DNA from: Psammoneis japonica
Lineage: Eukaryota
DNA: 48,011 nucleotides
Reading direction: 5' to 3'
Assembly (NCBI GenBank): GCA_008632985.1
Contig: QPGO01000011.1
Span: 806,001-854,011, forward strand
In this document: positions 24,347 to 47,148 of the stretch, one piece after another
Layout: every line of letters begins with the position of its first letter
Numbering within the stretch: position 1 is the first letter of the stretch
Notes under the pieces: model-generated
Told to the model about the DNA's origin: nothing
The model's database searches: none
The model's input: the letters and a program-made list of their open reading frames with translations, nothing else
Program-made: the position numbers and the translations under genes

Positions 24347-24534
24347 TTAGCTAGCGATAGCTACTACCGTTAGTAGCTAGAAGTAGTAGATAGATAGAGT
24401 CTACTCTAGCTATGAGCTACTAGAGCTCTCTACGGTGGCTAGAGAGCTAGAGAGTAGCTCTCCCTCTACTCTCTAGAGTAGAGATAGTTAGTAGTAGTAG
24501 GTAGAAGTAGGTACTTCTACTAGCTACCGTAGCT
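24347..24534. repeat. TAG/CTA/AGAG-rich low-complexity intergenic island
   Basis: About 190 bp of tagctag/agtag/ctact/ctct words, beginning about 145 bp upstream of the TRM13-like start. Confidence 0.8.
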
Positions 24535-24945: not shown

Positions 24946-25290
24946 CTATCCAACTCTGGGGCATTTGACGACCTTGTCCTGCTCGTCCACAAAGATACGA
25001 ACCCGATCTTCACGATAATCCATCGATACCATTGCATCCTTGGGGACAACTTGAACCATGGCAAGATTTGGGTTCTCCCTCGCAATCGTTTCTTTAGCTT
25101 CTTGACCCGACAATCCCATTAGTTCTTTCCACGCAGTCTTGGGTTCTGCCATTTTCTCCTTGCTTTCTTGTTCAATTTCTGGATCGGGGCAGTCGCCTTG
25201 CGGTGATGGTGATGAACTCGCGGTCACTTGGAACGCGCAAAGCAGCGAGAGAAAAAGTACAGACAACTGGATGAGCTTTGACAGCTTCAT
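24946..25290 (-). CDS. Secreted serine protease inhibitor, potato inhibitor I (I13) family
   Basis: Signal peptide followed by 'KTAWKELMG...EAKETI..ENP...VVPKDAMVSMDYREDRVRIFVD...VVKCPRVG'. Confidence 0.92.
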   Translation of the reverse strand: MKLSKLIQLSVLFLSLLCAFQVTASSSPSPQGDCPDPEIEQESKEKMAEPKTAWKELMGLSGQEAKETIARENPNLAMVQVVPKDAMVSMDYREDRVRIFVDEQDKVVKCPRVG

Positions 25291-25777
25291 ACAATTTATT
25301 CAATCGCAGAGATGGCAGCCAAAGTAAAAGTGACGAGTTGTATCGACACTGAATGTAGTTTATCGCTTCTCCTATTGCGGGACTTGATGACCCGTTTCGA
25401 CGGCGCTATTGTGAAATGTGAGTGGCGGAACAGCGGTCATGGCATGGGTCATGGCTCCTACTTTACCTGCGGGTTGATGACTCGTGACTGCAAGTCTTGG
25501 ATACGATCATGAAGATGCATTCCTTTTATTCAGACACAAGGAATGAATATTTATTCCTTGGTGCACTACGAGAGGACCAACAACGACTGAAGCGGGGGTG
25601 TTACCGTAGCTATCAGAAGCCGCTAAAATGTCAGAACTTTTCAGGCACGATTGCTGAATCCATCACTGAGTGTCACGTTATGAACCTCGAGGAGAAACTC
25701 GAATCAATTTCAGCCAAGTTCAAGTCACAAAATTGATGGTGATAGGAAGCATGTCTACCCTGTCTACTTGAAATAGA

Positions 25778-26421
25778 ATGTGGATTGGTGCTCTTATTGT
25801 TTTGGTCCTCGCGCTCATGCAATCGGCTCGCGGCCAAGAAGATCAGCCTTGTGAAGACCCGTTGGAAGCCATTCTTGCGACCCTTACTGTATTGAGGAGG
25901 AGAATCCCGTGTGCGCATCGGCAGGATACAATTCTGCAGAATTCAAAAAATTGCACAATGAAGTTGACACCAACACGGTGATTGATCAAGGCGGAGCGTT
26001 CTGGATAGGAACATTTGCTTTGGTCGACTTGTCTCTCGATTACAATCACATGATGAATATTGGACCAAACCAAGCTAGTATTCGGTATGTCGAGTTTGTG
26101 AACACTACTTCAGGAGCCGAGTTTGGCTTGCCTCCGTCCACGCAATACCCATTTGGCCAGTCGTTTCGGCAACACGAGCATGCGCTAGTGACGGTGGACA
26201 ATAACTGCAAAATCACACGATGGGATCAATATGGTGATAACCAAGATCAGTTTGCCGTGGAAGATGCAGTTGGGGCATTGTTGAGTGAACCGGCCATCCA
26301 GTGTCGTTTTGATCCAACGTCTTGCACCAACGACAGTGATTCGCCGGCAGTCCATAGCAAGACCATCAAATCCGCAGGTCGTCTAGCAACGATTTGGGCT
26401 CTTATCGGGGCTCTTGTTTGA
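25778..26421 (+). pseudogene. Secreted, possibly GPI-anchored protein with a 1-nt frameshift near 25886 (pseudogene or consensus error)
   Basis: The signal-peptide ORF 'MWIGALIVLVLALMQSARGQEDQPCEDPLEAILATL' continues in a shifted frame as 'CIEEENPVCASAGYN...' to a hydrophobic C-terminal tail. Confidence 0.65.
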
Positions 26422-26552
26422 TAATCTTAAATTAGATTCCACAGTCTACATGCTATTTACAATTATCATCGAAGCAGCCTCAAGGCCGAAGGGCCCTGGT
26501 TCCACTTGGGTTGCAATCGTTGCGTCCCAAACTCTCTTGTGTATATCTATCA

Positions 26553-27798
26553 TTACGTCGATACCGCCCATCGAGTTCCCATGGTCATCCACAGAGCTGC
26601 CAAAGAATAGAAGATCACCTTGATCAATCTGTCAACCCGACTTGCTTCTTTCACACGTGGGTGAGATAGTGCCAAATCTAGAAACTTGAGCATTGCCAAG
26701 CAACCCAAAGTAGCCACGACCCATAATCGTACACGAGTGGCGCCACCATTGCTTCCATTGGCATTCTCATTCGTCGGAGGGTATGGCATGTAGTCTAGCA
26801 TCCAACAACCAAACAAGCCGAGAGCAATACTTGAATAGAAAGCAGCATCGGTAGCAATTACACTAAACATGGAAACTTTCATTGCCTTTTCATAGGAACT
26901 ATTGCTTCGAATCACCTGCTGGTACGAATCACGAGTGTGACCAGACTTGACGCACCAACGCGCAATCACAGCATAAACGAGTACCGTGCTGCCGTAACAA
27001 ATGTATGTAATTGCCAAGACAGAAGCTTCCTTTGTGTCGCTGCTCCACCGCTGTACTGGCTTTATCACAAAGACAGCGGTACCGATAGTAACGGTGAGTA
27101 GAATCGCGGCCAAAACGTCGGTAACCCAGTGGACGCAAAGGGTGATTCTGGATGCGGCTACCGTCACGGACGCAAGGCCGAATGTAAACCACAAGGCAGG
27201 AATCGTGGGGTGCTGCAACGCAATCAGATAGAAAACACTGGAAATAAAGGTCGTATGACCGCTCGGAAAGCTGTAGCACCATTCTTTTCTGGGCACAGCG
27301 TTTGGGAAATGCCAACGCCATTTGGGTCTGGAAATTCGGGTGGTATCCTTGAGTATCTTCACAACAACTTGGAGAATATGAATCGTAAGAATTGTATCAG
27401 GACAACAAACGCATTTGAATTGGTCATGTATAATAAAAAGCAACAAATGAGCATCTTGATGGGTCTTTTGGTGCTGAAGTGTACGACATTCGCAAGTATG
27501 TTCAAGAAAGCGAATCGCCTGCTGCACACGTCAAGAATGGATGCTTGTCGGTCCTCCATGGAACAGGCATGGACCAAACGAGCGAATCCTCTACGATGTC
27601 ATCAATCGGTATTGTTGAGAGTCGTCTTAGCTTCGTATCCGTATCTTGCGACCCAACAACAGAATCCGTCGAGGCGGTACTAGAGGCATTCAATTGCGAT
27701 TCCACATCGTCCTGCGATTCGAAAGGGGTAGAATCGCCATCTTGGAAATCCACAGGAGTTGGTCTTTCTTGCGCTTGCAGTGTCATCAATGCTTTCAT
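26553..27798 (-). CDS. PAP2-superfamily multi-pass membrane phosphatase; 5' region disrupted (frameshifts or unresolved intron at ~27530-27365)
   Basis: Intact C1 'KDTTRISRP', C2 'FPSGH' and C3 'SRITLCVHWVTD', plus several TM segments. The N-terminal ORF 27798-27502 is out of frame with the catalytic ORF. Confidence 0.75.
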
Positions 27799-28229
27799 GT
27801 TGGAGTGTTTGAAAGAAAAAATGAAGGTGTTCCAATCGGCGTTTTAGCGCGCACCAAAAATCCGAATTCTCCGAAGGAAAAAGGCCTGTCTTGAATCTTT
27901 CTCGTCACACAAACATCAGCACTTTCGCACAGCATTGACAAATGGCGCCATGCATGTCGATTGGAGCAACCAGTGTCTGAGCTGGCAACAGAGTTTGCTC
28001 CTACGCCATTTGGACTCGTGAGATCGTTCAGCACAACCGTCTACATGGTTCAATGGTCAATGGCCTTCGCTTATCTGGATATCATCGTGATGTCAGCGGC
28101 AAATCCGCGATGCTTCCTTGCGCGATTATGCGCGCATGGGTGTTTTACTCGACTCATTCGACTGACGTAGATTATGGTGCCGACGGACGGGCAGACAATT
28201 GGCAAAAAAAAATCGAATCGAAATCAAAA

Positions 28230-29431
28230 ATNGTTTCACAACACTGAAAGGCCTTCGTGTAGCCTACGTGATACTTGCCTTTCTTTTTTGTCTCCTTGCT
28301 TTCGTTGGCTTTATATGGCTGTGAAGGTCGCCACTGCTCATAATAATAAAGTGACGAGTGACATGGAATCACCACCGACCGGGCACCGATGCATTTGCGT
28401 CGACTGCGATCAAGATTCTGAATGAGGAATGCGGAGGCCTCTGGAAAGGAGATGCTGTCGGGGGCGATCCACACTACTTTGAAACGGTCGATATTGTCTT
28501 GTCGCACTGTATCAAACCATCGGGTTGGTTAGCCAATTTAACAGAAGGCGTTCCTGTTTCAGACATTACAATCATTTCTATGTGTGGCCAACCTGTTGTT
28601 GGCGCTTCAAAAGGGTCGACCATACTTCGACTTCCAAATAGGGGTCGGTGTGATCAAAGCTACGCACAATGGCTATCCGAACGGAGCGCAAAGATGCCTT
28701 CTTCTGTCCAGGAAAAGGGTATCGTGTTGTTTCTGAAAGACGATCTTAGTGACGCTAGTAGCTATCGACAGGGAGTTTTGAGGATCGATACATGACAACA
28801 TGCTAAGGGTTGCTTCGACAACTGCTGGCTTTGCGTGTGGCATGGAGCCAACAAAGTCGCCACTTTTATCGTTTCCCACTGCTTTGCGATCGAGCCATCA
28901 TGAGTTGGATAAGTTTGTTCAGTTTGATATGAAGGAGTACTCAAGTCAAAACGGCAAATACAACAAAGTCAAACCTGTGAAGCTCCGTTCGTCTCTCCTT
29001 ACAAGAATCTTAGCGATTGGGCATTGTCACTCGGGATAACGTTTGAAAAAGATCTAGTTAGCGTTTGCTATGGTGGAACGTTTGCAGTGTCTTCAAAACA
29101 AATACAAAATGTCAAGGCGGATTTATGGGAAAAGATATCCACGAGTCTGATGCGGGGCGATAACATCCAGAAGGGACACTTTGCCGAGCGCGATTGTGCA
29201 GGCTTGCTTTCTCAGCCACTCAAGGAATACAAATATCAGCATTTCGTCAACACCAGATGGAGAAATGGACACGAGTTCGGTGGTGCCAGGATCGCTTCTC
29301 CGCCAAAAAAGCGTTGTCGACTCTCTCAAGTCATGATGTTTTTCTTAGCTGTGCATAAATCGTCTTTCCCACCTATGATGCAACAACCAGGATCGAATGT
29401 GTATAATCCTTGGTGCAACCAGAGAGTTTAA
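28230..29431 (+). pseudogene. Fragmented DUF3431-like (diatom-expanded) gene with several frameshifts
   Basis: Successive frames carry 'VDIVLSHC', 'RLPNRGRCDQSYAQWL', 'GIVLFLKD', 'GFACG', 'YKNLSDW', 'VCYGGTFAVS' and 'LMRGDNIQKGHFAER'. Shifts occur near 28790 and 28995, and there is an N base at 28232. Confidence 0.65.
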
Positions 29432-29830
29432 AAAGGTAGCCCATGAACTGCGATGGCAAACGCGGCACCCGAGTCCGTGCCAAAACAACAAAAATTTTGA
29501 AGTTGTAGATACATCCGTTGGAGCAATGTTTTCTACTTCGTCGGCTCGCTGTTAACTCGCATCGCGGAGTGCAGTTCTCGCTCAACTGGAACGTCGCCGA
29601 AATGGTCGCAACACCCTACTCGTACATGTACGCGGTTCGTCTAATATCATTAAAGCAAGGTTGCAACGGTCCTCTTTGGTTCACCATGGGAACTGAATCA
29701 CGCAAGACTACTCCAAGAAGTGCTAATACCGTACGAAAATAGATGTTGACAGGTGAAACTGATGGAAATAATCTGAATACGTCTTTTTCTTCCCTAATCG
29801 TCGCTGACTCCCTTGCTTTACACGTAGGCT

Positions 29831-31908
29831 TTAGGGCCCGGTTGAGCAAGTGCCATCGCCAGGAGGTCGAACGTTGACATATCTTGTGCAAGATGAAGAT
29901 GCTCCCTTGCTATCTGTGACAGTGAGTGTCACTGTTCTATTTCCAATGCCATACGGAGGCGGAGGGTCCAGGACATGCGTCAACGTATCACCGTTGGGAT
30001 CAAACGAATCGAAGTCAATCGTCGTCCACACCTTGCAAAGTGGGGAAGGTCGGGATCTTTTGTCCCTGTTCTTGCAGCGCATAACTGGTGGCTTGTTTAC
30101 ATGACAGACACCACGCTTAGGTTGACGAACCGTCACAGTCCTTGTGCAGGTATTTGTGCGGCCTTCACTGTCCGTAGCTGTGAGAGTTACACCGTAACAC
30201 CGACGTTGTAGGGCGGAGGAGGGACTTGCGTCAAGACAACAGGCTTGGAGTCAAAAGATTTGGACCCGTCGTCAATCGTAGTCCAAACATAGCACTTTGA
30301 AGACGATATGGCTTTCTTATCTCGTTCCTTGCAGCGCATTCTTGGTAGCTTTGCCGTCTTGCAGCCAGACACTATGACCAGTAGCTTCTTCTTGGTAACA
30401 GCTCCCTTGCTGTCTTTGGCTTTGAAGAACAGTTTGTATCGCGCATTATCCGTCGGCGTCATATCGAGACGAACAGTTGCTGCATGACCAGATTTGTTTG
30501 TCACCTTCATTCCAACGGGAGCGCCCCAAACTTTAACGGTGGTAGTTTGATCTGGCTCTGGACTGAGGAAGGTTATCACGGCATCAAGGTTTTCACATGA
30601 GGCCAGCTTGATCTTTCCTGACGAGGGAAAGTCAACCGCAGCTGGCGGGGTGTTGCTCTCACCAGAAGACTGGCACCGAAGGGTTGGATAGGGGTACTCG
30701 CTGTTTTGTAGATGGGTCCAAACATTGCTGTCCCAGCTGGAGTATGGCGGATTAGTGGGATCACGAAAGTATTGACTGCTTTCCACGACCTTTACTTCAG
30801 TGTCTCCTGCTTCATATTCTTCATCGCGATAACCTCCAACTGCAGGGTCCATCACGCAGTAGTTACCCTCTAGCAAACTGGAATCATCATAACTGCCAAT
30901 AAATCCACCTACGGCACCATAATCATCAAATATGGTGACCTCACCTGTGGCGAAGCTGCTCTTAATCGAAGAATTATCAGAATATCCAACGAGACCACCG
31001 GCTGCACCACTTCCTTTCACATCACCCAGAACATAGCTATTTGAAATGTAAGTTTCAATTGCGTCTCCCACGAGGCCACCCACGCTCAAACTACCCAAAA
31101 CAGCTAAATCACCAACTACGAAGCAGTTGCGGATGGCTCCGCCCCTGAATCCGCCCCAGAAATAGCCAACCAAACCGCCAAAACTTTTTGAATAGTCATA
31201 CCACGGTTCATAACCGTAATCTGACACAGTGACATTATGCACACTGCATTCTTCAATATCAACACCGTAATCAGCATATCCCACAAGACCGCCAGCTGCG
31301 TCACCGTATACTTCCCCACCGAGGACCTGGCAGCACGTGATATTAACATCATCTGCATATCCAACAAGCCCGCCAGAACGGACATCTCCACCTACGTACG
31401 AATCTCTCACGGTGACATTATGGATAGTTCCACCATACGTATATCCAACGAGCGATCCGAAATAGTTAGGATAGTCGCCGCATCTACCTTGGTCGACGGT
31501 GGTGTTAACGAGGATTAGATTTCGGATCTCGGCATGGTCAGTAACACCAAACAGACCAAAGCCGGCAATGCAAGCTGTGTCCGGTTCAACGATGTGCAAA
31601 TCGCGAATCGTATGCCCTCCACCATCAAACGATCCAGTGAACTCAGTATCTTCATAATCATCATAAGAGAAATCAATGCCAATGGGATGGAACTTATCTC
31701 CAATGACGGCTTGAATGTCATTGACCAGCACATAATTTCTATCGAGTCCATTAGCTTGAACACCCTTCAGGTCATCGTAAGTAGCAATCTTGCAGGGATC
31801 TGTGTTAGGCTTCCCACAATTTGATTGAAACCCCGAGATCGTGGGGAGTACGATGAAACTGCCTACGATGGTACGTAAACGGAAAGTCTTCCAGTATCCT
31901 GTCACCAT
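29831..31908 (-). CDS. Secreted-type GLUG-motif repeat protein with Ig-like and two HYR-like C-terminal modules; 1-nt frameshift near 30192
   Basis: 'FTGSFDGGGHTIRDL', 'GLFG' and about seven 'GGLVGY'-type repeats. After the stop at 30187 the shifted frame continues 'VTLTATDSEGRTNTCTRTVTV' and a second 'PPPPYGIGNRTVTLTVTDSKGASSSC' module, ending at 29831. No introns. Confidence 0.75.
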
Positions 31909-32443
31909 GAGCTTTTTTCTTTTCTCGAGTGTTCTTCATATGGAGTGTCACAGGGAGAAAACAACATAGGTTTACAATGATGTGTAAGATTGACAGTCGT
32001 GGCTGAGCAGAATTCCTACAGCGTAGATGGTGGCAATAACAAAACAGTAAACGGCCAATCGTCAAGCCCATCTCCGGGTGGCTAGAACATGAGATGTATG
32101 TGAACATAATAACAACGCACAATATTACATGGAGCTCCTTTCATCGTAAGTGTGACTGACGCAACAAGAAATGATGGCAAACGGGCGCTCTTCATTTTGG
32201 TTAACAGATGCACCGTTCACAACCACCACAACAGAAAAAGCACGATACATCATGCATGCTGCAGGTTCAAGCAAAGGCCAATGGCGATGGGGCAATTTTC
32301 GCCATGGCTCACAGCCCAACACTGAGGAATGACTCACATTCTTATTGGTTCAAAGCACTGGTTTTGTTCTTATCGTTGTTTTGTTTTTGTGAGTGCAAAG
32401 TACGTACCGTAGCTGAAAGTTCGCGGATCGCGGATCATCACAG

Positions 32444-32547
32444 TGCCGGTGTTCGTTTTATGATCTCTCTCATAAATGTTTTTAGGGACATTCTTTATGA
32501 CCTCTCTCCTAAATGTTTAGGAATATTTATGGTGACTAATGTCCAGT
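32444..32547 (+). repeat. Dispersed repeat copy A (TA-rich form; two internal ~38-bp units ATGAyCTCTCTC.TAAATGTTT..AGG)
   Basis: Aligns with 37012-37108. Confidence 0.85.
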
Positions 32548-33969
32548 TCTCTCGGTCCGTTGGCTGCGCTTCTGTGGGTCATCCGTGTGACAGGTCGACG
32601 TCTGAAATCTAATGGCAACTCTTTTATTACATGCCGGAATGGCGGGTTCATGAACACCTGTCCCTAAACGAAAAACAGGGTTTTTCGAATGTAAAAAAAG
32701 ATGAGCCAGGAACTCATTGTGATGCTCTTTGTTTTTGTTGCAAATGGTCCGTGGGGCGGTTTGTTCGGCGAAGAGAAAACCACACCTTCATCATCTCGTT
32801 TTCGAGGTGTGTGGTCATGTTGGGGAATTTTGGGGTTTTTTACAGTTGCAATTTGACGTCACTGTGGTCGCATGAATCGTTGGGGTGTTCGGGTTTCATA
32901 AAATGGCCGAACACATCTCACCACTTCAGGTGCTTTTGATTCTGACATTGAAGACCGAGCGACTCTGGGTCGCTGTTTTTAAGTCGTTCCCATTGTGGAT
33001 GGCAATGTCGCATGTGAGTGACGAGTCGAGAACAGAAGTGGTGTGTGAGCAATGGTGGATGATGCAAAGTAACCCCAGCAGAGGTGTGCCGATTTTTCCA
33101 CGAGTGCGAAATTTGTTTTGGCAGAGTCCGACAAATGACCGATTGTCGACACTCAACTGCCAGATGAAGTGAGAGCTGACCAGTTCTGATGGCATTGCAT
33201 TGGTCAATTGGGGGGATCATCAGAGCATCTTTGCCAGTGAGTTGCAAACACAAACCCATGTCCACATGTCTTCCGATGCGAATGAGATTCACAAAAAATC
33301 ATCATTTTCGGTGGATCGCAAACACAGTTTTTGCACTGACAACCCTTTTTGGATTTGCAATTCATGGAAATGAATCACAAATAAATCAGGCCTTGGATGC
33401 AATCCACCTTCCAAAATTGCAAACAAAAATTTTAAATTTCTGGCACAAAAAGGATGCAGAAATCCTGCAGCCCTGATCTCCTCAGCAAGTCTCTCGCGTC
33501 AGTTGTCCTGCAGTGTGAAAGCTTGTGGGACCGATTGAGCTCCACAAACTCAGGACAGCATTGCCTTTGAAAAAGTGAATGCTTGTCGTGATGTCTGCTG
33601 AGCTTAAAGTCATTTGAATGAGAACAATGCATTGTAGAATCTTCGTCAACCCTCAACCACCGGACTTGAGCAGCCGCCGAGCCACTGGGAAGAGTTTGTC
33701 AGGACCAATCTGTGTGAACTGCAATGCAAACAGAGGGAGCTGGCTTGAACTGCTCACACCTGCACTGATTTCAAACCACCTCCTGGCCCTGACATCCATT
33801 GAAGCACCGACACACTGACCTCCAGTCTGCCTACTGCAGAACTGCCACCAGCATCACAACCGCCACCTGCCTTCACTCCTCCTGAACCTGCTCCTCCGAC
33901 GATGCTGGTGATGCCAGAACCTCCTCCCAACACTTCTCCAGAGGGAGCTCTTCCACTGCACCACTCAAG

Positions 33970-35800
33970 TTGATCACAAACAAGGGACAGTCACTGTCCA
34001 AAAGGTTTGTGCATGAAGTCTTTTTCACTCCTGTTGACCCAAAAGACGAGCTGCATGGGGCTGCAGCACAGTTGGCATGCTGTCTCGTGACTCTGGACAC
34101 CTGCACAGATTTGCAGACCTGCAACATTGATGATCCCAGGGTTTGTGCAACTGCAAAGAAACAAAAGGACCCTGACACGCCATCCCTGCATGAAGCCATG
34201 TGCAGTCACAAGGCCGATGAATGGATCAAGGCTGTGAAAATCAAGATGAGTGCACTGCTCCACCATCATGCATGGGAGATGGCACCACCAAGGACCAATG
34301 GTGTGAATGTGTCACCAGGTGCATGGGCTCAAGAGACTCCCTGATGGTGCACCCTTGAAGCATGAAGCCCGGTGTTGTGTTTGTGGCAATTTGCAGCCAA
34401 AAACAAGGTGTTGATTTTTTTGAGACCTGTGCACTGGTCATGCAATGGTCATCAACTTGGCTTCTCCTCACAACGGCACTCAAAGAAGGTTGGACCACTC
34501 ATCAAGTTGACTGTGCCACTGCCTTTTGCCAAGCCGACATCTCAAGGAGAAAGTCTGTGTGTGTGGAGCCTCCCAAGGGTTTTCAGCCAAAATCAGGTGC
34601 CGACTTGGCACTGAAATTGTTGAAAGCCCGTGTGGACTCTGCCAGTCTCCCAAGTGCTTCTGTGGAAAGCTGTGTGATGGATTGATCAAATGAGGATGGA
34701 TTCAGTCCACCATTGACCCTCCTTGTCTTTGTTTTAAGTGCATCAGCTGAAGAACTTCAAGCTGAGGCCCAGATTGCCAAATTGGGTGTCTCCAATGATG
34801 AGCAATGCCATGTCTTTGACCTGCATGATGAAGGCAAAGTTGGCAACTTTTTGGGCATCAAGATCCAGAAACTCAAGGACAGCTGATTCCCACACTGACC
34901 CAACCTGGCCTGACAGAAAACTGCAATGGAGCTCCCACTCCTGCACTTCCTGCACCTGTTGGCAGCAATTCTGAAGGCCTGTTGTTCGACAAACCTTGTG
35001 ACTGTCACTCCATGGTTGGCATGTTGTTGATGCATCTAGCATCCAACAGTCATCTGGACATTGCCTGCACTGCCCACCAAGTTGCTCAGTTCTCCTTTGC
35101 TCCAAGCCTCCTGTGCTGTTGCTGTCAAGTGCGCTCTTTGGCACTTGAAGGACACTGCTGACAAGGGCTTCATCCCAGCACCCACCATGGATCATCGGCC
35201 AGATTGTTGTGTTTGATGCTGAGTTTACAGGACTCTTCAGTGTTGAAGATGGACAAAACCCCACTTCTGTCAATTCACACACCGGTTGTGCTGCTCATCA
35301 TGCCAGATGTCCCGTCATCTGGTTGTCCAAGCTGCAGACCCTGGCACCAGCACTTTCTGTGATGTCTCACCCTCCTTTGCAAGATCTTGAAGGAAATCAA
35401 CATGCGCATGTCTTCATGCAGCTGGACACTCACAACGAGGCAGCTGCCCACTCCAAAGCCTTCCTGTCGGCTGATGACAGAACCGATGCCTCCCCCATCA
35501 ATGCTGTCAACCTGCCAGCATCTGTTGTGCATGAAGACAATGCTGCTTGCCTCCAATTTGCTTTTGTGGCCTAAATTGTCCCCACAAATCAAGCACATTG
35601 CACTCCACACCGCTGGTTTCGCATGAGGGTTGAGGCTTTGCAGATCAAGATTGAGCCTGTCAGCTCTGCTGCACAGCTTGCCAACCAGTTTGCTGAAGGA
35701 TTGACTGCTGATCTGTTCTGAATTGGTCGTAAAGCCCTCATGGGCTGGCGGCCATTTTTCCTCCTCATCTCAGCAGTTGAGAGGGAGAGAGTTGTCACGA
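33970..35800 (+). mobile_element. Ty1/copia LTR-retrotransposon relic (RT + RNase H, polypurine tract, start of 3' LTR)
   Basis: Frameshifted motifs 'DPDTPSLHEAM', 'QGVDFFETCALVMQWSS', 'QVDCATAF', 'VCVEPPKGF', 'CPVIWLSKLQT', 'VHEDNAAC', 'IKHIAL', 'QLANQF..GL...RKALMGW'. PPT gagagggagagag at 35779-35791, then TGTCAC at 35793. Confidence 0.88.
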
Positions 35801-37011
35801 GTCAAATGCCAAGTCTGGTTCATGGATGATGCTTCCGGTCATCAATCTCTGCTTCCAGAAGAAATGTCCATTGAGCCTTCTGGCATCAGAGTGACACACA
35901 TGACCATCAGGTCAAAATGTCATCTCCGGTCCGGTCAACCATGAGATCTTCTCACAATTTGCATCTTTGGCACACCTCATTGTCTTTTGCTGAATTGTCA
36001 TCCTCTGTGCTGCACTGCACAACCTCAAGAGAGGCATCTCCCTTTTGCTGTCTGTTTGGTCAATGCATCCTGAGTCATGACACATGTCTTGAGAAGGAAA
36101 TGGTGAAAAGTGTTGCAGTGCGCACTTCTTGCCATGGCAGACCTGCTGCATTCAAAAGATTGTTCTTTCTTTTCACCTCACATGAAGTCAAAGCACAAGG
36201 CACTGGCTGAGTCAAATCAGCATGAAATGTCACAAAGCAGCCAGGCAGATTGACTTAAATTTGCTGGATTCAGTGTCACTGTTTGTGGGCAGATTGTTTT
36301 AGACTGGGAAGCAAAAGTGGCCCCAAAGTGAGGGTGCAAAACTTTGCACTCAAAAGTTGCTGAAATCACCCACAAAAGCATGAACACATTTGTGCTGAAC
36401 AAAAAGAGAAATGGCACCCCTGCAGACCAAACAAAATGCTGCTGTTCCAGTGGCACCATTTTTGCAGTCACAATGCAAAAATTTGACACTGCCACACAGG
36501 CAGTCCTCATTTTCATTCTCCACACCATTTGTCACATTGGTCATTTGCTTCTCTGTGCTGTTTTGTCATGACAAAACCCAGGACATGGGTGGTGCTGCGA
36601 TGTGAGACTCAACAAATTTTGAGCTTTTCTTGCACTTGGCAGAAGACAGGGGAGCCTCAGAGAGACAATGTGAAAATGTTCCCCATGTGCTTCACCTGAT
36701 GCTGTGAGCAAATCCACAACTTCAAAAGGTTGCCATGCCTCTGTGTGAAAGCTGTTGCAGCCCACTCTGCAGAAATTTTTCAAGAGTGCCTCAGCAGCCA
36801 TCACAGCTGATTTTTGCACAAGGAAAACCCCAGGGTTGTGCAGGGGTGCACTTGGCATCACACAAGATGATGGTGCAAGTTGGAGCCAACAACTTTGCAA
36901 AAAATCAGCTCAGTGCACCACCCAATCAAATGCACCTTAGCTTGCTTGTGCTGATCAAGAAACAATGCCTTTGAACAAACAGCACCCAAGCTCTTCAGGA
37001 ACATTGTTCAT

Positions 37012-37108
37012 TGCCGGTGTTGCATGATCTCTCTCACAAATGTCAGGGACATTGTTCAATGACCTCTCTCACAAATGTTGAGGAACACTCATGGCACCTT
37101 TGTCCAGT
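37012..37108 (+). repeat. Dispersed repeat copy B (TA-free form)
   Basis: Homologous to 32444-32547 but contains no TA dinucleotide. Confidence 0.85.
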
Positions 37109-39216
37109 CAACCATTTTTGTCATGAATCATCACATCTGCATGTCACCACAAGACTCTTTTTTTGTCATCTCCAAACTCTTGTTTGTTTGATTGAAGCTC
37201 ACTTTTCTGATCAATCACAACCACAATTGCAACATTCACTGTCACAATTTCTTTTCAGACCTCTGTCATTGACCACGTCCATCTCACTCAGCACTGCATC
37301 CACCCTGTCATGGCTGGAGACTTTTCAGGGAGAGGCTGTTGTGCCCTGACCTGCCTGTGTGGCCCCTGCCTTTGCTTGTCAAGCCTGGCTGCTTGTTGGC
37401 ATGGGCCTGCTCTGTGCATGACAGTCAGACACCTGCAGGCAGCTGAGCAGATCTCTCTGAGATCTGCCTCTCTTGCTCTTTCTTGTTGGCATGCATGCGG
37501 TTGATGCTGCTGGCTTGCAGGGGTCTGCAAGCTCTGTTGGCTGCTTTGAACAACACTTTTCAAGCAAACTCAGAAAACAAACAAGCTTCACTGCCACTCT
37601 TCCTTTTTTCTTGTTGCCAAGGCACCCTGCTGCCATGACATCAGGGGGGGGGCACAAAGCAGACAAGGGTGCTGGCTGGAAAAACCTTCTTCTTCAGAGC
37701 AGCAGCTGGTGGTGGCAATGGCCTTGCCTGTGTCAGCTCCACAAACTCTGCAAGGCCCAGCATGCTGAAAAGGAAGAAGAAGGAGCCCACACACCTTGTG
37801 GCACTGGCATGCTGTTGGCAGCTCTAGACTAGATGACAGCCTCAATGAAAGCCAATGACCTCTTTGCACCTGCTGTGCCCCACAGAGGGCAGTGCTGCAG
37901 TGCCAGCACCACCACACACTCAAGTGCACTGTGCCCTTGACTCTTTTGTTTGAAATCAACAAGCTTCTTTGGTGACTTCAAAGCTCGACAATTGACTTGA
38001 GACATCAAAAGATCTTTTCAACAAGCCAGGCAAGGGCTGGGACTTGTTTGCGCAGAAGCTTGCAAACAAGAAACGTGTTTCACGGTGTCTCAAGAGTTGG
38101 GGTGGCAAGGCTCACATTCATTTGTCTTGTGTGCCAAATTTGGTGACAGACAAACAAACAGGCAGGCTGCAAGGATTGCTGTTGATGACAGCTGCAGGGC
38201 TGTTTCCAGGTTGGCAGATTTTGAACAAAACAAAAGGGTTTTCACTTTGAGTGTGTTCAGGGAGTGACTTGGCAAAGGTGCTGGCACACATGACACACAT
38301 CTTTGCATGTGCAGTCTTTGCACACTTGGCATGTCTTTGAGTGTGCTGTCAGATGTGTGCTGCAATCTCCTCTGGTGATGCCATGGTTCACTTTCAGAAG
38401 TTGACATGCAGCTCATGTCAACGCACATCTGCTGAGCAGAGTGAGTGCAAGATGCAGCATGTGGGCATGCAAGAAACTGTGTGCACCCCTGCACCTTGCA
38501 CTTTCTGTGTCCCAAGGCACCAGCTGACATCAAAAGACACTCTCTGAGACATTTGCCAGCTGTCAATGGCTGTGGTGCATGCTGTGGAGCAGCTCCAAGA
38601 GTCTGATGTTGCTGACCCACAAGCCAATCACCAAACCCAGTTGGCAGCAAGCAGAGTGACTCCAGATGCAAGAAGATGCTGAGTTTGGCAGCACTGGGTC
38701 ATCTCATCTGTTGGCTTGCCAAGTCATTTTGGGGCAAGACCAAGCAAGAGTTCCCCTGGCTCTCCTCAATGATTTTTTATGATGTCAACCAATGTGCAGC
38801 AGCCAAGTGACAAATGGCATTGTTGACATTGAGAGCACCAAAAAGGCAGCAGATGCTGCTCTTGTTGCATGGAGCCCACCCTGCTCTAGAAAAGACTGTG
38901 CAGGAGTTGATGCAGAAGCTCTCTGACTTACAAAAATGATGACAACAATGTGATGGTGCTGGACTTCCCATTGCTGGCAAGCATTGGCTCCAAGATTTTG
39001 TCCAAGTTCTTGAGTGGGCTCTTCCACCAACCAATCCACAAGCTGCTCTGTGCTGCACTCAAAATGATTGTCCTCAGGGTGCAAGTGTTGCCACCCAAAG
39101 GACCTGGCTGAGGTCAAGTTGTGCTGGCTGTCATCTAGCTGGCTCATTGACCAGCAGCAAAAAAATTCCTTGGGGACAAGGGGTGACAACCAGCACCCAT
39201 TCCAAGCTCCCCCCAA

Positions 39217-39316
39217 ACCCATGACAAACCCAGCTGGTGTGAATGTCTTCATCACCAGGCCTGTTCCAGCTCCAGGTGCTCCGCGTGGGTTCGATTCCCA
39301 TCATTGGCCCATTTTT
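39217..39316 (+). pseudogene. tRNA-like relic (intact T-arm/B-box and oligo-T; degenerate 5' half)
   Basis: T-arm gtggg-TTCGATT-cccat at 39285-39301, a 7-nt 3' acceptor strand cattggc, then TTTTT at 39312-39316. The 5' acccatg pairs only 5/7, cagctggt resembles a D-loop, and no anticodon arm was resolved. Confidence 0.35.
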
Positions 39317-39572
39317 AGGTTTGGCGCAAATAACTTTTTCAAAATCCGTTTTTCGCCAAATCGAGAAGGGCAAGTGTACACTTTACATGTGTTTTCGGGT
39401 GTACACTCACCTTTCGATTTTCGAAATGATCAAAAATGAAGGAGTCAATTGTGCCAAAAATGTGATTTTCGGCTGGTGTCCCATTCCACGTGAAAAATGC
39501 TCGTGATCACTCACTTTTTCATTTTTCGGAGCTCGTGTGTTTGGTCTTCTTCAACTCAACTGACGTCCAAAC

Positions 39573-42500
39573 ATGCCTCATTCCTACAGACACAATGCAG
39601 TTAATTTGATTGAGCGTGCCAAAAAAATGTGTCCTCTCGACTTGCCATCCGTCTCATCCACCAGCCCTCTCGATGCGCACTTTCAATCAAATTTCCAGTG
39701 CATCGTGGGCAACAAGAGGAAGAAGCAAAATGGAGTTGGCCGTCGACACAAGTCAGGGACTGGCAACAGCAAAAACAAGAAGCCTCACAGTGAACTTGAA
39801 ACACACTCCACGGTCTCCGACCATGTCGTTGCTGCAGCTGAAGCAGCTGCAGCCACTCCCTTCAATCCGAGCAACCCGAGCTCTGCTGCCTCCATCGCTC
39901 CCTCCGTTGCTCCCACCAACCTGGCTGCTTTCAACCCGAACCCCTCCACAGAACACACCTCACTCATTGTCCAGTGTTGTCCTTGCCAAGACCGCCAGGC
40001 CCCTCCCAAATGCACACTGCAGGAGCGGCCGCCACTCCCTCCAACCCTGACTCTGACAATGCCGCCGTCACTCCCTCCGTTGCTCCCGCCGACCTGGCTG
40101 CTTTCAACCCGAACCCCTCCAAGGAACACCCCACTCATTGTCCAGGGTCGTCCTTGCCAAGACCGCCAGGCTCCTCCCAAACGCAAACTGCAGGAGCGGC
40201 CGCCACTCCCTCCAACCCTGACTCTGACAATGCCGCCGTCACTCCCTCTGTCGCTTCGGCCAACCCAACTGCTGTCAACCTCACCGCCTCCCAAGGTTGC
40301 CCCACTTTTAATCCTCATGCATTTGAAGCAACCCACAAAGATCCCCAACAGGCACTTTGTCGTGCAGCGGTCAAAATGAGAGAAGGAGTGTTGTCTTGCG
40401 CCGCCACTCAAGAACAACAAATCTGTGCGTTTGTGCGTGCTTTGCATTTTCCCGAAATGGCCCCATTTCTTCAGGCTTGTAATTTGACATTGCCGAAAAC
40501 AAATGCTGCGGCTTTGCAAATTGCCAAACAGTTGGGCAAAATGTGGGCACGTGCCAACGACACCAGCAATGGTCAACACCTCACCGATGACAAAAAATCG
40601 TTTGTCCGTGCTCTTGCAACTGGAGTCTCCGGTTCACCAGAAAAATCTGCTGAAGAGGAAAAGTTGTCTTCCCATGACTGCGCCAAGGCACTTGGCCTGA
40701 GATGGAGCACTGTTTGTTGCCAAATGAAGAAGGGAAAGATTGCCAGAGAGGCACTGCTTTCAAACACTGACGATGTCATGTGGTCTTCAGTGCAACCCCG
40801 TCGGCGTCCTCACAAAGTTTCCCCTGAGATCCGAAAGGCATTTGTGCACTGGTTGTCAAATCATCCCGACACAGCGCAGTCTCCCAACACACAAGACATG
40901 ATTCTCATTAAAGATGAAGATGGAAACAAGAAACGAGTGAACAAATGGTTGCGCAATGTGTCCATGCGTGAGCTGCACAACGACATGTTGAAGCCTGTGT
41001 CTGTTGGCGGATTCGAACATGCACGTGATGCCAATGGCAAGACCCTCATTGGTGGCACGATGTTTCAATTTTTGATTCCCACGCAGTGTCGAAAAATGAG
41101 CGCCAGTCAATGCAGCATGTGTCAATGCAGCGATTGCACCAACGCCAATTTTGCACAAGATGCATTGAACAGGTTTCGAAGGAAGCTTTTAAAAGAGATG
41201 GAGGTGGAGCAAAATCGGTTGAAGCTTGCGAGCGAGGATCCTGAGAACTTGGAGAACCATGACAGTGCCCTTGGCAAATTGGAGGAAACAGTGCGTGTCT
41301 GTCAAGAGGAAGCGTTTGGCCCCAACGGCCATCACCTTCATCCTAAAGCCCGAGATGCAGTTGCAACCATCACTTGTGGCAATGTCAATGGTCAGGATCA
41401 TCCTCATTGGAAATGCGTTTTGGGTGAATGCGAGCATTGCCCATCCCATCCAACTCCATTGTTGGAACAGAATGAAAGTCCCAGTGCGCCCCAAGTTTTG
41501 TTTCAACGTCACTTGACTGTAAAAAGTTGTTCCAAGCATGGTGTGCACATGGAAGCATGTCCTGTTTGTGAGGCAGATCCAGATGGGAACAAGGACGCAA
41601 AGGTGAAACGCAGGACCTTGTTGACAAGGTTCCGAAAACCAGTCGGTGTCTTTGCAAAAGAGCACTGCATTCCAAGTTTAGAGAAGCTCCACTGCCACCT
41701 TCCCCACGTGGTCATTCTTGGGAAAAATCATTGCATGGAAATGCGTTGCAAAGCATTTGAGTCAACACCCAACAGCCTGTTCACGTCTCATGACTGCTCC
41801 AAGCATCAGAAGGCAGAGTTCAACAAACAAATCAGGGTGACCATTGTGGCAACAACCAAACATTGTCAATCGAAGGAAGAGTTTGCAATGCAATGGTTGA
41901 CAACGAGCTTCAGAAAACACATCATGTGCATCTCTCTGACTCTTCCAAGCAAGATGCCACCACCACCAATGCTCACTTGGAAAAGTTTGTCACCTGGTTA
42001 AAAAACCGCAACCTGTGTGAGGCGTGGCTTGTGATTTGGGATCACACTGATGGTTGTGCTAAACAATGCCAATGTGCTTTGGCACTGTGCTTGTTGTCTG
42101 TCTTTGCGCACAAATGCAACATTGTGTTTGACCATGCCATTGGAGCACCTGGACATGGCAAAGGAGAGGTTGATGGCATTGGAGCCTGCGTTGGATCACT
42201 CACACATTGAGAAATGCAGTCCACAACTGTTGCAGGAGTCAATGACAAGGATGGGAAAATTAGACCTGAAGCTTTGGTCATGGATGACAACAGTGTTGTA
42301 GCCACACACAGTCATGCAAAGGAATGTCACAAAATGCTCACAAAGAACAAGAATGCTTTCGGCGCAGTTGGTGACAGAAATCATGCCAAGAGGGAATCCC
42401 TTCGAAAGTTGACACAAAGGGTGTGTCATCTGCAGGAAGCTGACAAAGTTCTTGGCTCTTCAATCAAAGTCAAGTTGATTGGATTGGTGCAAGTGCACAC

Positions 42501-43371
42501 ACGCCATTGTGGCATTGGAGCCTTGCACCATTTCTGATTTGAACCTCTTTTCCCCATTGGTTGGGTTGCGATGTGAAGAATTCCTTGTGCTTGTGAAGCC
42601 TGCCTGGATCAGCTGAAATGGCCTTGGGTTAAAAATGTCAAGCCAACAGAGCAGCCACGACATGCAGGTGGCAACCGAGCTTGCAAACTGTGGCCCATCT
42701 TTGAGGGACTGAACGATTGGCAAGTGTGCCAGGTGATTCAAACAGATGAGAGTGACGCTGACGAGGTGCAGTTGGTTCACAAATCTGTGTTGGACTTCCT
42801 GACTGAGGAAATGGCCAAGGAAATTGTTCCAAACAGCCACGTTGCATTGTCTTGTGAATCTGAGGAGGGACTCTATCTGCGGCAATGGGATGAACTCCCC
42901 CACAAAGCACAGGAGGACAAGGTTTGGAAAGAGTTTGACCCACCCATGACTGTTGAGGCCGGTGAATGGGTTTGCAAGGGAACGCATCTTAACCCTGTTC
43001 CATGGGCCAGAGGATGGCACACTCCTGGTGATGCTGAGGAATGTGAGACAAGAGTGTTGCTCAAGCAAATTGCAACTGCCAACATTGAGCTCAATGAACC
43101 ATCAGCCAATCTGGAACTGCCAAGTGCGTGCAACAGGAATGAGGCTTCACTTCTTCATCCACGTCATTTGAGTGATGACGAGCATGAAGGAATTCTGGAT
43201 GCCATCCGACAGCGGGAGGCAATGGATTGTTTTGAGGACTGTTTGGATGAGGTGGAGGAACAAGACATCGAAGCTGGTGAGTGGGGGGGAGAGAATGACG
43301 ACATGGAAGACACTGTGGAGGATGATGAGAGCACGGCAGGGGACAGTGACAGTGACAATTCGGACAAATAA
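39573..43371 (+). mobile_element. Decayed Sola2-like DDD transposase gene (frameshifts ~39960 and ~41834; in-frame TGA at 42208, 42535 and ~42574)
   Basis: Catalytic-type motifs 'HDCSKH....FNKQI(Q)GDH', 'WDHTDGCAKQCQC' and 'GAPGHGKGEVDGIG' resemble the Sola2 pattern DF.ENY..EIQS.HW / SDG...QY / HGKG..DG.G. Cys-rich segments and 'RIPCACEAC' are present. A putative terminal region lies at ~39317-39560. Confidence 0.7.
39898..40265 (+). repeat. Coding tandem repeat, ~171-173-bp unit x2 plus partial
   Basis: Units start at 39898, 40071 and 40242. Several differences are CG vs TG/CA, and 2 extra nt in unit 1 cause the frameshift. Confidence 0.9.
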
Positions 43372-43394
43372 AATGGCAATGTTGTGCAACTAGA

Positions 43395-46300
43395 TCAACC
43401 ATCCAACACAAAAGCTTTCCTTTTTGCGTGCAACTTCTGCTGCACCGCCCCAGGAAGTTCGAACTGGTGCACCATGAACACTTGTTGCAGACGCTTTTTC
43501 GCCACGTATTTCACCTCATGTTCCTTGTTCCCAAGACACCAATTGAAACACTCAATGTCCTTTGCTGGCAATGCAAAAGGGTGGTTGGAATCAAAGATCC
43601 ATCCACGGTGCAAGGCAATGCAATGGTTGTTCACAAGACGGCACAAAGTTGTGAAGTCATCATTGCAGGTCGTCACGTCAAATTCACCACCTGCTGCAAG
43701 GGAAATCGTTTGATCCACACCGCAAAACTTCATGTTTGAGTTCTTGGGTGGGAATTTTCCCTTCAAACGACCGTTCAACATGTTCTTTGCAAACAACGTG
43801 CGCTTGTTGTCAGTGTCAGCACAGTTGGCAGATGTTTGAATGTGAGAAGCAATGTAGTCTCTCATTTCCACATCGCCAGCACAATCAAGAACACTGGCCA
43901 GGGAGGAAAAAACACATGTGTCGTTTTGTCCTTGCAGGAATTTCACGGGTGGACTGCTCGTCGGCAAGTTGCTGTTCAATGGCATCAACACGTTTCCTTC
44001 CAGCAAGGAGCAACAACCATCTGATGGCTTCAATTCTTTCAAATCTTTCCACACATCTGGAAACCAAAACTTAAAATTGCACTCAGCCCAATCCAGGGTC
44101 ACACACATGGGACGGTTCCCCTCCAAGCTGCAGCCAATGAAATCAGCTCCCCGCCCAACAGGTGGAAGTTTTTGAATCTCCACTTCAGCCAATCTCTTCA
44201 GTTTGGCAATCTGTGGTGGGTTGCAAATCGATTCCACCTTGTTCTTAATCTCGTCCCTGCATTTTTGATTGAGTTGCTGGGGAACATTTGGTTTGTGTTT
44301 GGCATGCACAATGAGGCCCGCACACATGTTCATGGGATGGCCGTTCATTTCATTGTGCCACACGTCAAACCATGGTTCCCACAACATGACGCCCTTGTTT
44401 TTCCCTTCAAAGCAACCAAACAAGTGAGGAACGGCTCCTTTGGAATCGCCAGGACGCTGACGCCTGCTGTTCCATTTGCTTGGATCAATCCAAATGAGTT
44501 TTTTAGCCTGCAACATCACTTGAGCATCTTCGCACTCACACTCGAGTCGATCCCTTTCTTCTTGGTGTCGCTGGGCTTTGGTCAACCGACGCCATGAAGT
44601 GTCTCCTTTTGCCCTTGGTTTCGGGACAGAGCTGTGAAGGCCAATGAGATCCTCATCCTTGTGCACTCCAGTTGTTAATTTCAAGGTCTCATGCGAACGT
44701 CTGCGTCCAGCGTCTCCCACTGTCTCCCACTTCTCTTCTGCAGCCGGGGCTTTCTTCCTCTTGTCTCTTGCAGCCTTGGCTTTCTCCCTCTTCTCTTGAG
44801 CTGCCTTGGCTTTCTCCCTCTTCTCTTCTGCAGCCGCAGAAACTTCTTCCTTGCATTCATCGTCCTCCTCGTCCTCAGTTGCCTCTGGATCTTGCTCCTC
44901 CTGGATTTCATCTTGCACACCGTCATCTTCCTCCTCTTCCTCCTCTGGCTCAGTCGATTGATCCATCGCCTCATCTTCCTCCTCTTCCTCAGCCGATTGA
45001 TCCATGGCCCCATCTTCCTCCTCTTCCTCAGCCAATTGATCCATGGCCCCATCTTCCTCCTCCTGGTTTTTGTCTCGCAGTTGCAACCTTGCAGTGCCAG
45101 CCTCGGCCTTTTGCAGGTCATCCGTCTCTTCAGTGCCCTCCTTCCCCTCTTCCTCCTCCTCCTCCTCCACCTCTTCCTTCAACACTGCATCACGGGCACC
45201 AGCGTGATGCATGCAACGATGGTGACGAATCCTTCTGCAAAACTTGCACCATGCAAGTCCAGGAGCTGCCTTGCACCAATCAGCAAGGTGAGCAAGTGGC
45301 TCTTTGAAACAATCCTTCCTGCTTGGTCTGGCAGGGAAGTGAACTTCAACCATTTGTTTGTCTTCGGTGACGGCCTCCACTAACTTGGAGTGTCGTTGCG
45401 GCTTGAAAGGCCTGCACCACTGGTCCGGTGGACAAGTGCTGCCTCTGCATTCACCACCAGAGGTAATCCGCAACACATGGTTGTGCCACCAACCTGCAAT
45501 GATGTCAAACAAGGCCTCAGATGGCAGTCTGTCATCGGGGTCGAATGGCCCAAATGAGAAAATCCTCCAGCAGCCACTCGTGCAACTCATGAGCACTTTG
45601 CATGGTGCGTTGGTGGGAAGTTCGGCAATGTGGGGATCTTCCTGCATGTCATCATCCGACTGTTCAAGCTTCTCCCTTTTGCAATGCTCGTCATGAAAAA
45701 CACAATTGTTGCTGTGATCCACAATGGGCTTCTTCAACTTCTCACAGCTGATGCGTGGTTTTCGATGCAGCTTTTCATCCACCTGCTTCCTCTGAGCGAT
45801 TTCGTTTGGAACAGAGTGATGTTGGTTGCAGATTGAACCCCAGTGCTGTTTTGCGGATAGAACGGGAGATCTTGTTTCACATTTGAACTTGATGTCCAAC
45901 CCCTTCAAAGCCAACATTTCAAAATTGTTCTTCACCCCCTTTGGAGACTTAATTCGCCACCAACTTTGAAACACGACCTCGCCAAAAGGCAGCCACACAT
46001 GCATCTTTAAATCTTGGGTCAGCTTTTCATCATCGTGCGATTCTAGGTTTTGAATGTTGACCAAAGATGCCAAGTGGAATCGGCACTTGGCAATGCATGA
46101 ATGATCAGCAATGCATCCTCCTTCAACAAGCGGCTCCTCCCAACAGTCTTCATCCTTGCGGATCTCTGTTGCAACGTTCTGATGCTCGGTGCTGGAACGA
46201 GGCAATGCCAAAACAATTGCAGAGCTCATTGGAGTAATCCTCTCCTTTGCACACAGGGCAACAGTGTTGCCTTGATCATTCATCATGAGATCATCCCAGT

Positions 46301-47114: not shown

Positions 47115-47148
47115 GGCGAATGCACTGCTTTTGCACTCCTGTTTGTAT

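Follow-up and report, generated by a model that had tools for sequence, protein, structure and literature searches.

Loss of TpA dinucleotides from repeat blocks in a stretch of diatom DNA follows a one-base flank rule

Introduction

What kind of process could erase a single dinucleotide, TpA, from the transposon and repeat blocks of a genome, and does it work along one DNA strand at a time? This question is raised by a 48,011-nt stretch of Psammoneis japonica DNA (contig QPGO01000011.1, positions 806,001 to 854,011 of the forward strand), which we call the window and within which all positions below are numbered. The original prediction concerned two copies of a short dispersed repeat, copy A at the edge of normal DNA and copy B inside a TpA-poor domain, and saw in them the before and after states of a processive, single-strand event. 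Here we set this pair against the composition, copy number and proteins of the whole window. TA is lost to CA or TG in the repeat blocks, its loss is faster and more complete than that of CpG, and the two strands are hit independently and locally. With a confidence somewhat better than even, we attribute the pattern to a long-acting, repeat-directed A:T>G:C process at TpA, alongside which CpG decays more slowly.

Results

TpA loss in the repeat blocks

Two large blocks of the window are poor in TpA. The first (10610-15210) lies between a HIRA/CAF1B-like gene and a Bax-inhibitor gene and contains a 166-nt tandem array (12196-12695); the second (32700-48011), poor in CpG as well and rich in CpA and TpG, runs past the end of the window. 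TA thins out across a transition zone at the edge of the second block (32548-33100), and the oldest part of that block (36000-38700) holds 0-3 TA and 0-4 CG per 500 bp. A smaller TA-poor stretch directly upstream of the Bax-inhibitor gene (16501-17365, 3 TA in 865 bp) has normal CpG and may be a very young TA-free insertion. Block boundaries fall a few hundred bases from gene starts.

The difference in composition is large and confined to a few dinucleotides. There are 0-7 TA per 500 bp in the TA-poor blocks versus 8-46 in normal DNA, and 0-26 CG in the two large blocks versus 15-43 elsewhere; expressed as observed/expected, TpA per 1-kb bin is 0.02-0.17 in blocks versus 0.35-0.95 elsewhere, CpG is 0.04-0.70 versus 0.69-1.23, and CA+TG in blocks reaches 1.44-1.96. 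G+C is the same in blocks and normal DNA (about 0.48-0.50) because decay of CpG to TpG or CpA offsets the change of TpA to CpA or TpG. Relative to normal DNA, each 1000 dinucleotides of block sequence contain 35.7 fewer TA, 31.2 fewer CG and 61.4 more CA/TG, and transitions at the two pyrimidine-purine (YpR) palindromes make up ~92% of the dinucleotide change. CA and TG are raised equally (655/674, 954/892 and 427/477).

One side effect concerns reading frames: loss of TAA and TAG leaves long spurious open reading frames (ORFs) in all six frames (10700-14900 and 32850-48011), and 49 ORFs of at least 100 aa were counted in 15.5 kb of TA-poor DNA.

The flank rule

Which TA survive in the blocks depends on context. 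Among the 95 TA left there, 25 are TTAA, whereas normal DNA has 23 TTAA among 1022 TA (Fisher p = 5e-16, odds ratio 15.5); the TTAA density in blocks is undiminished (ratio 1.41), and the other NTAN words stand at 0.00-0.23 of normal. TTAA is a rare word in normal DNA, with 23 occurrences in 25.2 kb (1-10400 and 17600-32400), and because it is just as rare in normal intergenic DNA (7 of 362 TA, about 2%) its excess in the blocks does not come from codon effects.

All 16 contexts are fitted by a model with two independent half-sites per TA, either of which can bring about its loss at a rate set by the adjoining flank (chi2 12.8, 12 degrees of freedom, p = 0.38). The fitted k by 3' flank is 0.0 for A, 1.02 for G, 1.53 for C and 2.46 for T, with complementary values for the 5' flank; the order of rates is thus T > C > G >> A on the 3' side or, equivalently, A > G > C >> T on the 5' side, and TTAA is therefore immune and ATAT the first word to be lost. 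Such a rule is to be expected of a strand-specific activity that reads the trinucleotide of each strand on its own. Two other rules failed: uniform TA depletion (chi2 281 on 15 degrees of freedom) and a multiplicative, dimer-like rule, under which ATAA and TTAT would not be strongly depleted, as they are, despite one immune flank. The codon contexts of His and Cys in the ORFs did not discriminate which product, CA or TG, each half-site yields.

Two further explanations were considered and rejected. Mutagenesis by Pol-eta at WA motifs does not apply, as AA/TT is not depleted (ratio 1.07), and RNA-level selection against UpA does not apply, as both strands and decayed relics are affected.

The repeat pair

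Copy A (32441-32547, plus strand) and copy B (37009-37108, plus strand), both delimited by self-blastn, alignment and motif search, are 76% identical over 108 columns (E 9e-13) and form the sole dispersed pair among the 6 self-blastn matches in the window. A 20-nt degenerate motif built from the repeat has exactly 4 matches in the window, two per copy, against a chance expectation of 0.06, and no further copy was found in the window by blastn, by motif search or by a transition-tolerant k-mer scan in a purine/pyrimidine alphabet. Copy A sits just outside the TA-poor block, 530-640 bp upstream of an ORF with GLUG motifs; copy B lies inside the oldest, single-copy part of the block, enclosed by a TA-free interval (36938-37825).

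The counts that the original prediction drew from this pair are borne out. Copy A has nine TA (at 32459, 32473, 32483, 32496, 32510, 32518, 32524, 32528 and 32537) and copy B none; a MAFFT alignment places six of the nine over CA, a seventh TA>CA is aligned across an indel (TTTATG vs TTCAATG), one TA stands over GA, one (CTAATG) is unalignable, and none stands over TG. Across 122 aligned columns the A-to-B differences comprise 11 T>C, 3 C>T, 1 A>G, 1 G>A and 14 transversions.

The seven sites are fewer than they seem. Copy A consists of two ~36-nt units (A1, 32460-32496; A2, 32497-32528), as does copy B (B1, 37024-37058; B2, 37059-37090), and because unit-specific features are common to A and B (GATC vs GACC, GGGACATT vs GGAAYAYT) the two-unit duplication is older than the A/B split. 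When the four units are aligned, the seven TA/CA sites reduce to only four paralogous positions: the junction TTATG/TCATG (3 sites), NTAAATG/ACAAATG (2), TTAGG (1) and ATATT (1). The nominal two-sided chance of a 7:0 split between TA>CA and TA>TG is 0.016; counted by paralogous position, the split is 4:0 and p = 0.125. The apparent one-strand signature of the pair thus arose from paralogous positions of a small tandem repeat.

Direction of change is mixed as well. Parsimony on the tree ((A1,B1),(A2,B2)) polarises only two positions. At TTAGG, where A1 and A2 have T, B1 has C and B2 has G, the ancestral state is T; at ATATT, where A2 has T and the other three units have C, the ancestral state is C, and a TA was gained in unit A2. 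Furthermore, a resistant TTA or TAA half-site is carried by 8 of the 9 TA of copy A (4 of 5 distinct positions) and by all nine of the TA left in the transition zone next to it (32610-33070); such half-sites accompany ~35% of TA in normal DNA, which puts the latter at 0.35^9 = 8e-5. Copy A is not an untouched control, because its TA are biased to resistant half-sites and it lies in a transition zone; it looks like the shallow end of a gradient. The notion of a before/after pair therefore survives in one respect: because copy B lies in TpA-stripped DNA, most A/B differences are plausibly the product of the TpA-removing process. It does not survive as a clean comparison of ancestor and descendant.

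The mixed polarity invites the opposite explanation, namely that copy B preserves an ancestral CA and that the TA of copy A arose through one-strand C>T change at CpA, as in fungal repeat-induced point mutation (RIP). One of the two polarisable sites (A2 T against C in A1, B1 and B2) is indeed a CA>TA gain in A; direction, CpA context and one-strand look all match RIP, and diatom DNMT4 enzymes are described as related to fungal RID, with function unknown (PMC9998398). Set against this are the other polarisable site, at which T is ancestral, the fact that the repeats are stripped of TA, with both TpA/ApT and (CpA+TpG)/(ApC+GpT) displaced in the direction opposite to RIP, and the depth of A and B, both of which are single-copy at a likeness of at least 85%. 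We regard this explanation as quite improbable.

Strand coordination

Were the changes strand-coordinated, CA and TG should occur in tracts, and the original prediction had proposed a runs test for clustering of T>C versus A>G along individual copies. Across the TA-poor blocks, a runs test finds no clustering in the order of CA and TG (runs z -1.11, +1.52, +0.70 and +0.33); the same test in normal, largely coding DNA gives z -2.3 and -2.67. The variance of CA minus TG in 100-bp bins of the TA-poor blocks is 0.81-1.10 times the binomial value. His and Cys, which are the products of TAY>CAY and TAY>TGY and arise from CGY too, are likewise not clustered along the two long transposon ORFs (runs z +0.34 in P0001 and +1.2 in P0002). 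In the 166-nt tandem array, 10 aligned sites read CA in some of its 3 units and TG in others, and polarity alternates inside every unit. In a power simulation, tracts involving all derived sites gave runs z of -4 to -5, and tracts limited to the TA-derived fifth of sites gave a median z of ~-1.2 (5-95%: -2.8 to +0.5); the test is thus strong in the former case and moderate in the latter.

These results bear directly on the reading that takes copy A for an untouched ancestor, from which a processive enzyme made copy B by converting, in a single event along one strand, every T of TA (an A on the other strand). Its appeal is plain at the pair itself, where TA>CA outnumbers TA>TG by 7 to 0 and T>C outnumbers A>G by 11 to 1, and it explains all seven sites, which neither flank-to-product rule does. 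Against it stand the reduction of seven sites to four paralogous positions (4:0, p = 0.125), the parsimony gain of a TA in A, the bias of copy A to resistant contexts, and the 14 transversions and several indels between A and B, which imply a long history and not one event. Beyond the pair, neither the CA/TG order over 19 kb of TA-poor DNA nor His and Cys in the two ORFs is clustered, and polarity alternates within the 166-nt units. We consider a processive single-strand event unlikely, and this part of the original prediction is not supported. Its further proposal, that targeting depends on position in the domain and not on repetition, is compatible with the data, which for this purpose comprise one ~100-bp pair.

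A different explanation accommodates the lack of tracts: context-biased mismatch repair in silenced chromatin, in which a T:G-specific glycosylase or endonuclease would always excise the T of T:G mispairs that lie in a TpA context and so fix replication errors as TA>CA or TG, much like very-short-patch repair in E. coli. Strict dinucleotide specificity, a hierarchy of flanks, strand independence and the absence of long tracts would all fit. However, CpG is decaying in the same DNA, which is odd if repair of T:G to C:G were hyperactive, and TA is fully lost where half of CpG is kept, which demands a very high rate. Biased repair is therefore a candidate to which we give some weight, and which we nevertheless think unlikely.

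Copy number and differences between copies

Read depth from one sequencing run (X1) places the blocks in relation to repetition. Its depth counts copies at least 85% alike, so that a pair like A and B, only 76% alike, would escape counting; single-copy depth is ~55. Depth is 50-150 up to 32747 (~66 just before that point), ~331 from the bin starting at 32748, and 1800-4400 from 38724 on, some 40-80 copies, and the boundary of the block coincides with the rise in copy number. Within the block, two pockets (36068-37395 and 38060-38723) lie at single-copy depth (~53-75), with the bin between them (37396-38059) at 647. These pockets show the most complete loss of TA and CG, as expected of old, diverged relics.

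Both copies of the repeat are covered by X1 contigs of single-copy depth (~53): one (30844-33070) bridges copy A with 6 other letters, and one (36811-37986) spans copy B with 1 other letter. X1 may be the assembly's own source sample, so that this agreement is not independent support; runs X2 and X3 have almost no coverage of the stretch, and no RNA run is among those listed for it. A sequencing or assembly artefact, such as a misread base modification, could draw on precisely this circumstance, that the only run covering the stretch may be the assembly's source. Yet contigs of normal depth agree with the window over both copies, the block boundaries match the copy-number rise, and misreads could not account for a 1332-codon frame that is intact, for repeat units that swap CA and TG, or for the replacement of Tyr by Phe or Trp. 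An artefact is in our judgement scarcely credible.

Differences between copies are dominated by transitions (A>G at 129 places, C>T at 161, G>A at 151 and T>C at 133; each transversion class at 13-30), with 574 transition places in all versus 164 transversion places. CpG decay in the high-copy element is ongoing. The CA<->TG swaps in the 166-nt array (10 among 3 units) read as mutation in place.

The high-copy element and its proteins

The high-copy part of the block (38724-48011, summed depth 1800-4400) is a mobile element almost without TA, though with about half of its CpG retained. It carries two long ORFs. P0001 (43395-47393, minus strand) encodes 1332 aa with 4 Tyr (0.3%), all of them TAC codons, alongside 3.6% His and 4.9% Cys; P0002 (39842-42001, plus strand) encodes 719 aa with 0 Tyr, 5.4% His and 4.9% Cys. 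Tyr amounts to 2.5% in twelve host ORFs, versus 0-0.3% in these two proteins. Loss of TA to CA or TG eliminates the stop codons TAA and TAG and makes no new ones; a new stop can come only from CGA>TGA. The P0001 frame has no in-frame TGA before its stop, versus 12-62 in the other five frames, and of the 9 CGA codons left in it none has been converted to TGA.

Pfam, PHROGs and PDB sequence searches returned nothing for P0001 or P0002, a Pfam scan found no reverse transcriptase or integrase, and P0001 had no word-indexed homologues at near or shorter lengths; the Atlas matches of P0002 are unnamed eukaryotic clusters only. An exhaustive HMMER search with the C-terminal ~300 residues of P0001 matched 27 proteins (best E 2e-19). 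This Cys/His domain (43395-44420, minus strand), defined by those matches, their alignment and a fold model, keeps all of the residues that never vary in the family (Q, C, S, H and W-I-F), together with a near-invariant D-S-N just after them. The fold model is mediocre, with a predicted local distance difference test (pLDDT) score of 67, and its best Foldseek rows are papain-like cysteine proteases and deubiquitinases, none of them significant (E >= 0.085). The domain is probably a papain-like protease, the fold evidence for which is weak.

At four columns where relatives have Tyr (5-6 of them at three columns, 3 at one), the window has W, F, F and H. Because Tyr to W and Tyr to F need transversions, these replacements argue for selection for an aromatic substitute, and to judge from the sequence the element's ORF is probably still functional. 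This suggests that a long-standing pressure turned a probably functional element TA-free and hence immune to the process. The protein family as such is not marked by TA depletion: TA observed/expected is 0.25-0.76 at 12 metagenomic loci that encode relatives, which are thus not TA-free, and the lowest of them (L007, 1-2636; TA 0.25, CG 0.29 observed/expected) keeps ATAT, TTAT and ATAA and lacks the flank signature.

A few observations on these proteins stand apart. Three of 11 aligned relatives are Tyr-poor (P0126 0.8%, P0130 0.4% and P0139 0.9%) and have H, C, W or F in columns where Tyr is conserved, a hint of the same pressure on other elements or organisms. Both ORFs also contain coding tandem repeats, with 171-nt Pro/Ser-rich units making up the N-terminus of P0002 (39838-40306) and 39-nt Glu-rich units lying within P0001 (44816-45062), where read contigs cut or skip.

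Could the poverty in TA have been inherited or selected in the elements, through evasion of a TA- or UpA-directed nuclease or through foreign origin? Copies of the high-copy element mostly share the TA-free state, its ORF looks functional, and Phe or Trp at former Tyr positions implies selection. However, the fullest loss of TA and CG is in the decayed 36.0-38.7 kb, which is mostly of single-copy depth and has no ORF longer than 202 aa stop to stop, so that selection there is unlikely. The pattern is, moreover, common to all distinct repeat blocks and affects both strands and non-coding parts equally; relatives elsewhere are not TA-free, and an observed/expected ratio of 0.02-0.1 with exemption of TTAA is an enzyme-like signature. 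Taken together, we find inheritance or selection very improbable as the source of the pattern.

The rest of the window

The window is diatom nuclear DNA, with ORFs for Mon2, prefoldin, a HIRA/CAF1B propeller, guanylate kinase, SpoU methylase, TRM13, PAP2 and Bax inhibitor. We call it diatom in origin because the named best matches of the TRM13 ORF are diatom proteins (Skeletonema, Cyclotella, Chaetoceros and Cylindrotheca); best matches have 45-61% identity and none is identical. Other ORFs encode housekeeping functions of eukaryotes, and Atlas matches of the HIRA-like ORF gave no useful taxonomy. An Rfam scan of the window found no family. The HIRA/CAF1B-like gene is split into two ORFs on the minus strand (9161-10309 and 8437-9126), presumably with a short intron between them; introns are otherwise seldom evident in the genes of the window.

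The GLUG-motif ORF, upstream of which copy A lies, spans 30187-31908 on the minus strand. Its 3' end and the sequence just downstream contain a ~240-nt direct repeat of 61% identity (29861-30351). A single N stands at 28232, and adjoining run contigs diverge markedly from the window there, for instance at 28634-29226 (12 other letters, 26 gap positions) and at 29826-30593 (74 other letters). The discrepancy at 28233-30600, within normal DNA, has the look of a paralogue or of a divergent haplotype.

Discussion

Erasure of TpA in the repeats of this window is real and follows a defined sequence rule. Our literature searches turned up no account of repeats depleted in TpA, whether from diatoms or from any other eukaryote, and the phenomenon is apparently undescribed.

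In the long-acting process that we favour, ordinary genes alternate with transposon or repeat blocks worked over by context-specific mutation, in which TpA passes to CpA or TpG through two independent, flank-read half-sites per TA. Copy B, deep in its block, has lost all of its TA, and copy A, at the shallow edge, has kept mostly half-resistant ones. The agent would be enzymatic, most simply a DNA adenine deaminase-like activity reading T-A-N or a thymine-modifying activity reading N-T-A; it would be aimed at silenced or repeated chromatin rather than at sequence homology, and would have acted long enough for resident, probably functional transposon proteins to become nearly Tyr-free. A more specific formulation is a chromatin- or repeat-directed form of DNA editing that is the mirror image of RIP, converting A:T to G:C at TpA on either strand, reading one flanking base so that TTAA is exempt, outpacing the decay of CpG in transposon DNA and leaving transposons adapted to life almost without Tyr; its agent would likeliest be a DNA-acting adenine deaminase or a thymine-modifying enzyme of a kind new to eukaryotic genome defence. 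We put this forward tentatively, at somewhat short of even confidence.

Several points weigh against the favoured process and deserve to be considered together. As concerns timing, among the 20 best-supported window-private differences (drawn from 40 of 760 rows) 11 are CG<->TG/CA and 2 involve TpA, and the TA loss of the high-copy element is mostly common to its copies and so older than the present ones. Direct evidence for TA loss in place is accordingly thin, since the CA<->TG swaps could all stem from CpG. As concerns strands, the power of the runs test is modest if tracts are limited to the TA-derived fifth of CA/TG sites, and for the A/B locus taken alone an all-one-strand change stays the simplest description. 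The link from flank to product is similarly loose: no single rule covers all seven A/B sites, each covering about half, in that a rule tying the adjacent base to the flank forbids TTAT>TCAT (3 sites) and TTAG>TCAG, and a distal-base rule forbids ATAA>ACAA and CTAA>(A)CAA. Across the blocks, a product test gave a correlation of +0.5 with the adjacent-base model, with effects far below prediction, and a 50:50 split of products fits best. Finally, normal genic DNA is an imperfect proxy for the ancestral composition of the blocks.

To our knowledge, repeat-directed hypermutation is known in essentially one form, the C>T change of RIP in fungi. If our interpretation is true, these blocks would represent a second form, of opposite chemistry (A:T>G:C), with a strict dinucleotide target and a one-base flank rule, in algae that are ecologically dominant, and would imply a DNA-editing or repair activity that has so far gone undescribed and is possibly adenine-directed. 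Blocks that are free of TA and retain TTAA could then serve as a sequence-only marker of silenced DNA in diatoms. The functional-looking transposon proteins without tyrosine would additionally show how far mutational pressure can reach into protein composition. For annotation, gene callers would over-predict in TA-poor blocks, as loss of TAA and TAG inflates spurious ORFs.

Comparison with known systems

Fungal RIP offers one parallel. As in RIP, dinucleotide-specific transitions are limited to repeated, transposon-derived DNA, blocks of skewed dinucleotide content with sharp bounds adjoin normal genes, and the effect on coding capacity is wholesale. The chemistry is reversed: RIP turns CpA into TpA (C:G>T:A) and lowers G+C, whereas here TpA is destroyed (A:T>G:C) and G+C stays constant. 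Both RIP indices accordingly move the opposite way, with TpA/ApT ~0.09 in blocks vs 0.64 in normal DNA and (CpA+TpG)/(ApC+GpT) ~1.8 vs 1.2. RIP depends on a RID/DNMT-type cytosine methyltransferase, acts before meiosis and finds duplicated sequence through homology, with thresholds of length and identity. On homology the data point both ways: the blocks coincide with raised copy number, yet the single-copy parts are the most depleted and the ~100-bp A/B pair behaves by position. Strand coordination of the RIP kind was found in neither blocks nor ORFs, the lone exception being the 7:0 split at A/B. Unlike in RIP, moreover, the transposon ORFs here stay open, as the change removes TAA and TAG, and the host is a diatom. 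The same-strand runs over hundreds of bases that characterise kataegis were likewise found in neither blocks nor ORFs.

Decay of CpG in methylated transposons shares with our blocks the loss of CpG, the matching gain of TpG and CpA in repeats and a grading with apparent age. The CpG deficit and the TpG/CpA excess that it predicts for repeats are both present, and CpG methylation of diatom transposons is reported (PMC9998398). The CpG half of the pattern is probably ordinary methylation decay; such decay leaves TpA untouched and would explain that half only.

Fossils of ADAR hyper-editing in animal retroelements resemble the present pattern in showing A>G change with a 5' U or T preference. They arise at the RNA level and affect the sense strand of retroelements only, whereas here the strands are affected equally, CA and TG rising together, and non-coding relics are included. 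ADAR prefers U or T as its 5' neighbour and G as its 3' neighbour, and the 3' order found here, T > C > G >> A, differs from that preference.

In E. coli, the scarcity of CTAG is attributed to very-short-patch repair, a context-specific T:G>C:G correction that depletes a TA-containing word and enriches its CA and TG derivatives, as seen here. It is, however, bacterial, tied to Dcm sites, genome-wide and modest in effect, whereas the loss described here is confined to blocks and near-total.

We know of no comparable near-total loss of one amino acid, here Tyr. A partial counterpart is the depletion of motifs in viruses and transposons under APOBEC3 or ZAP pressure; although the motifs there are TC/CC and CpG and the chemistry is another, in both settings a host activity that reads a short motif shapes the sequence and protein composition of elements, and the survivors are those without the motif.

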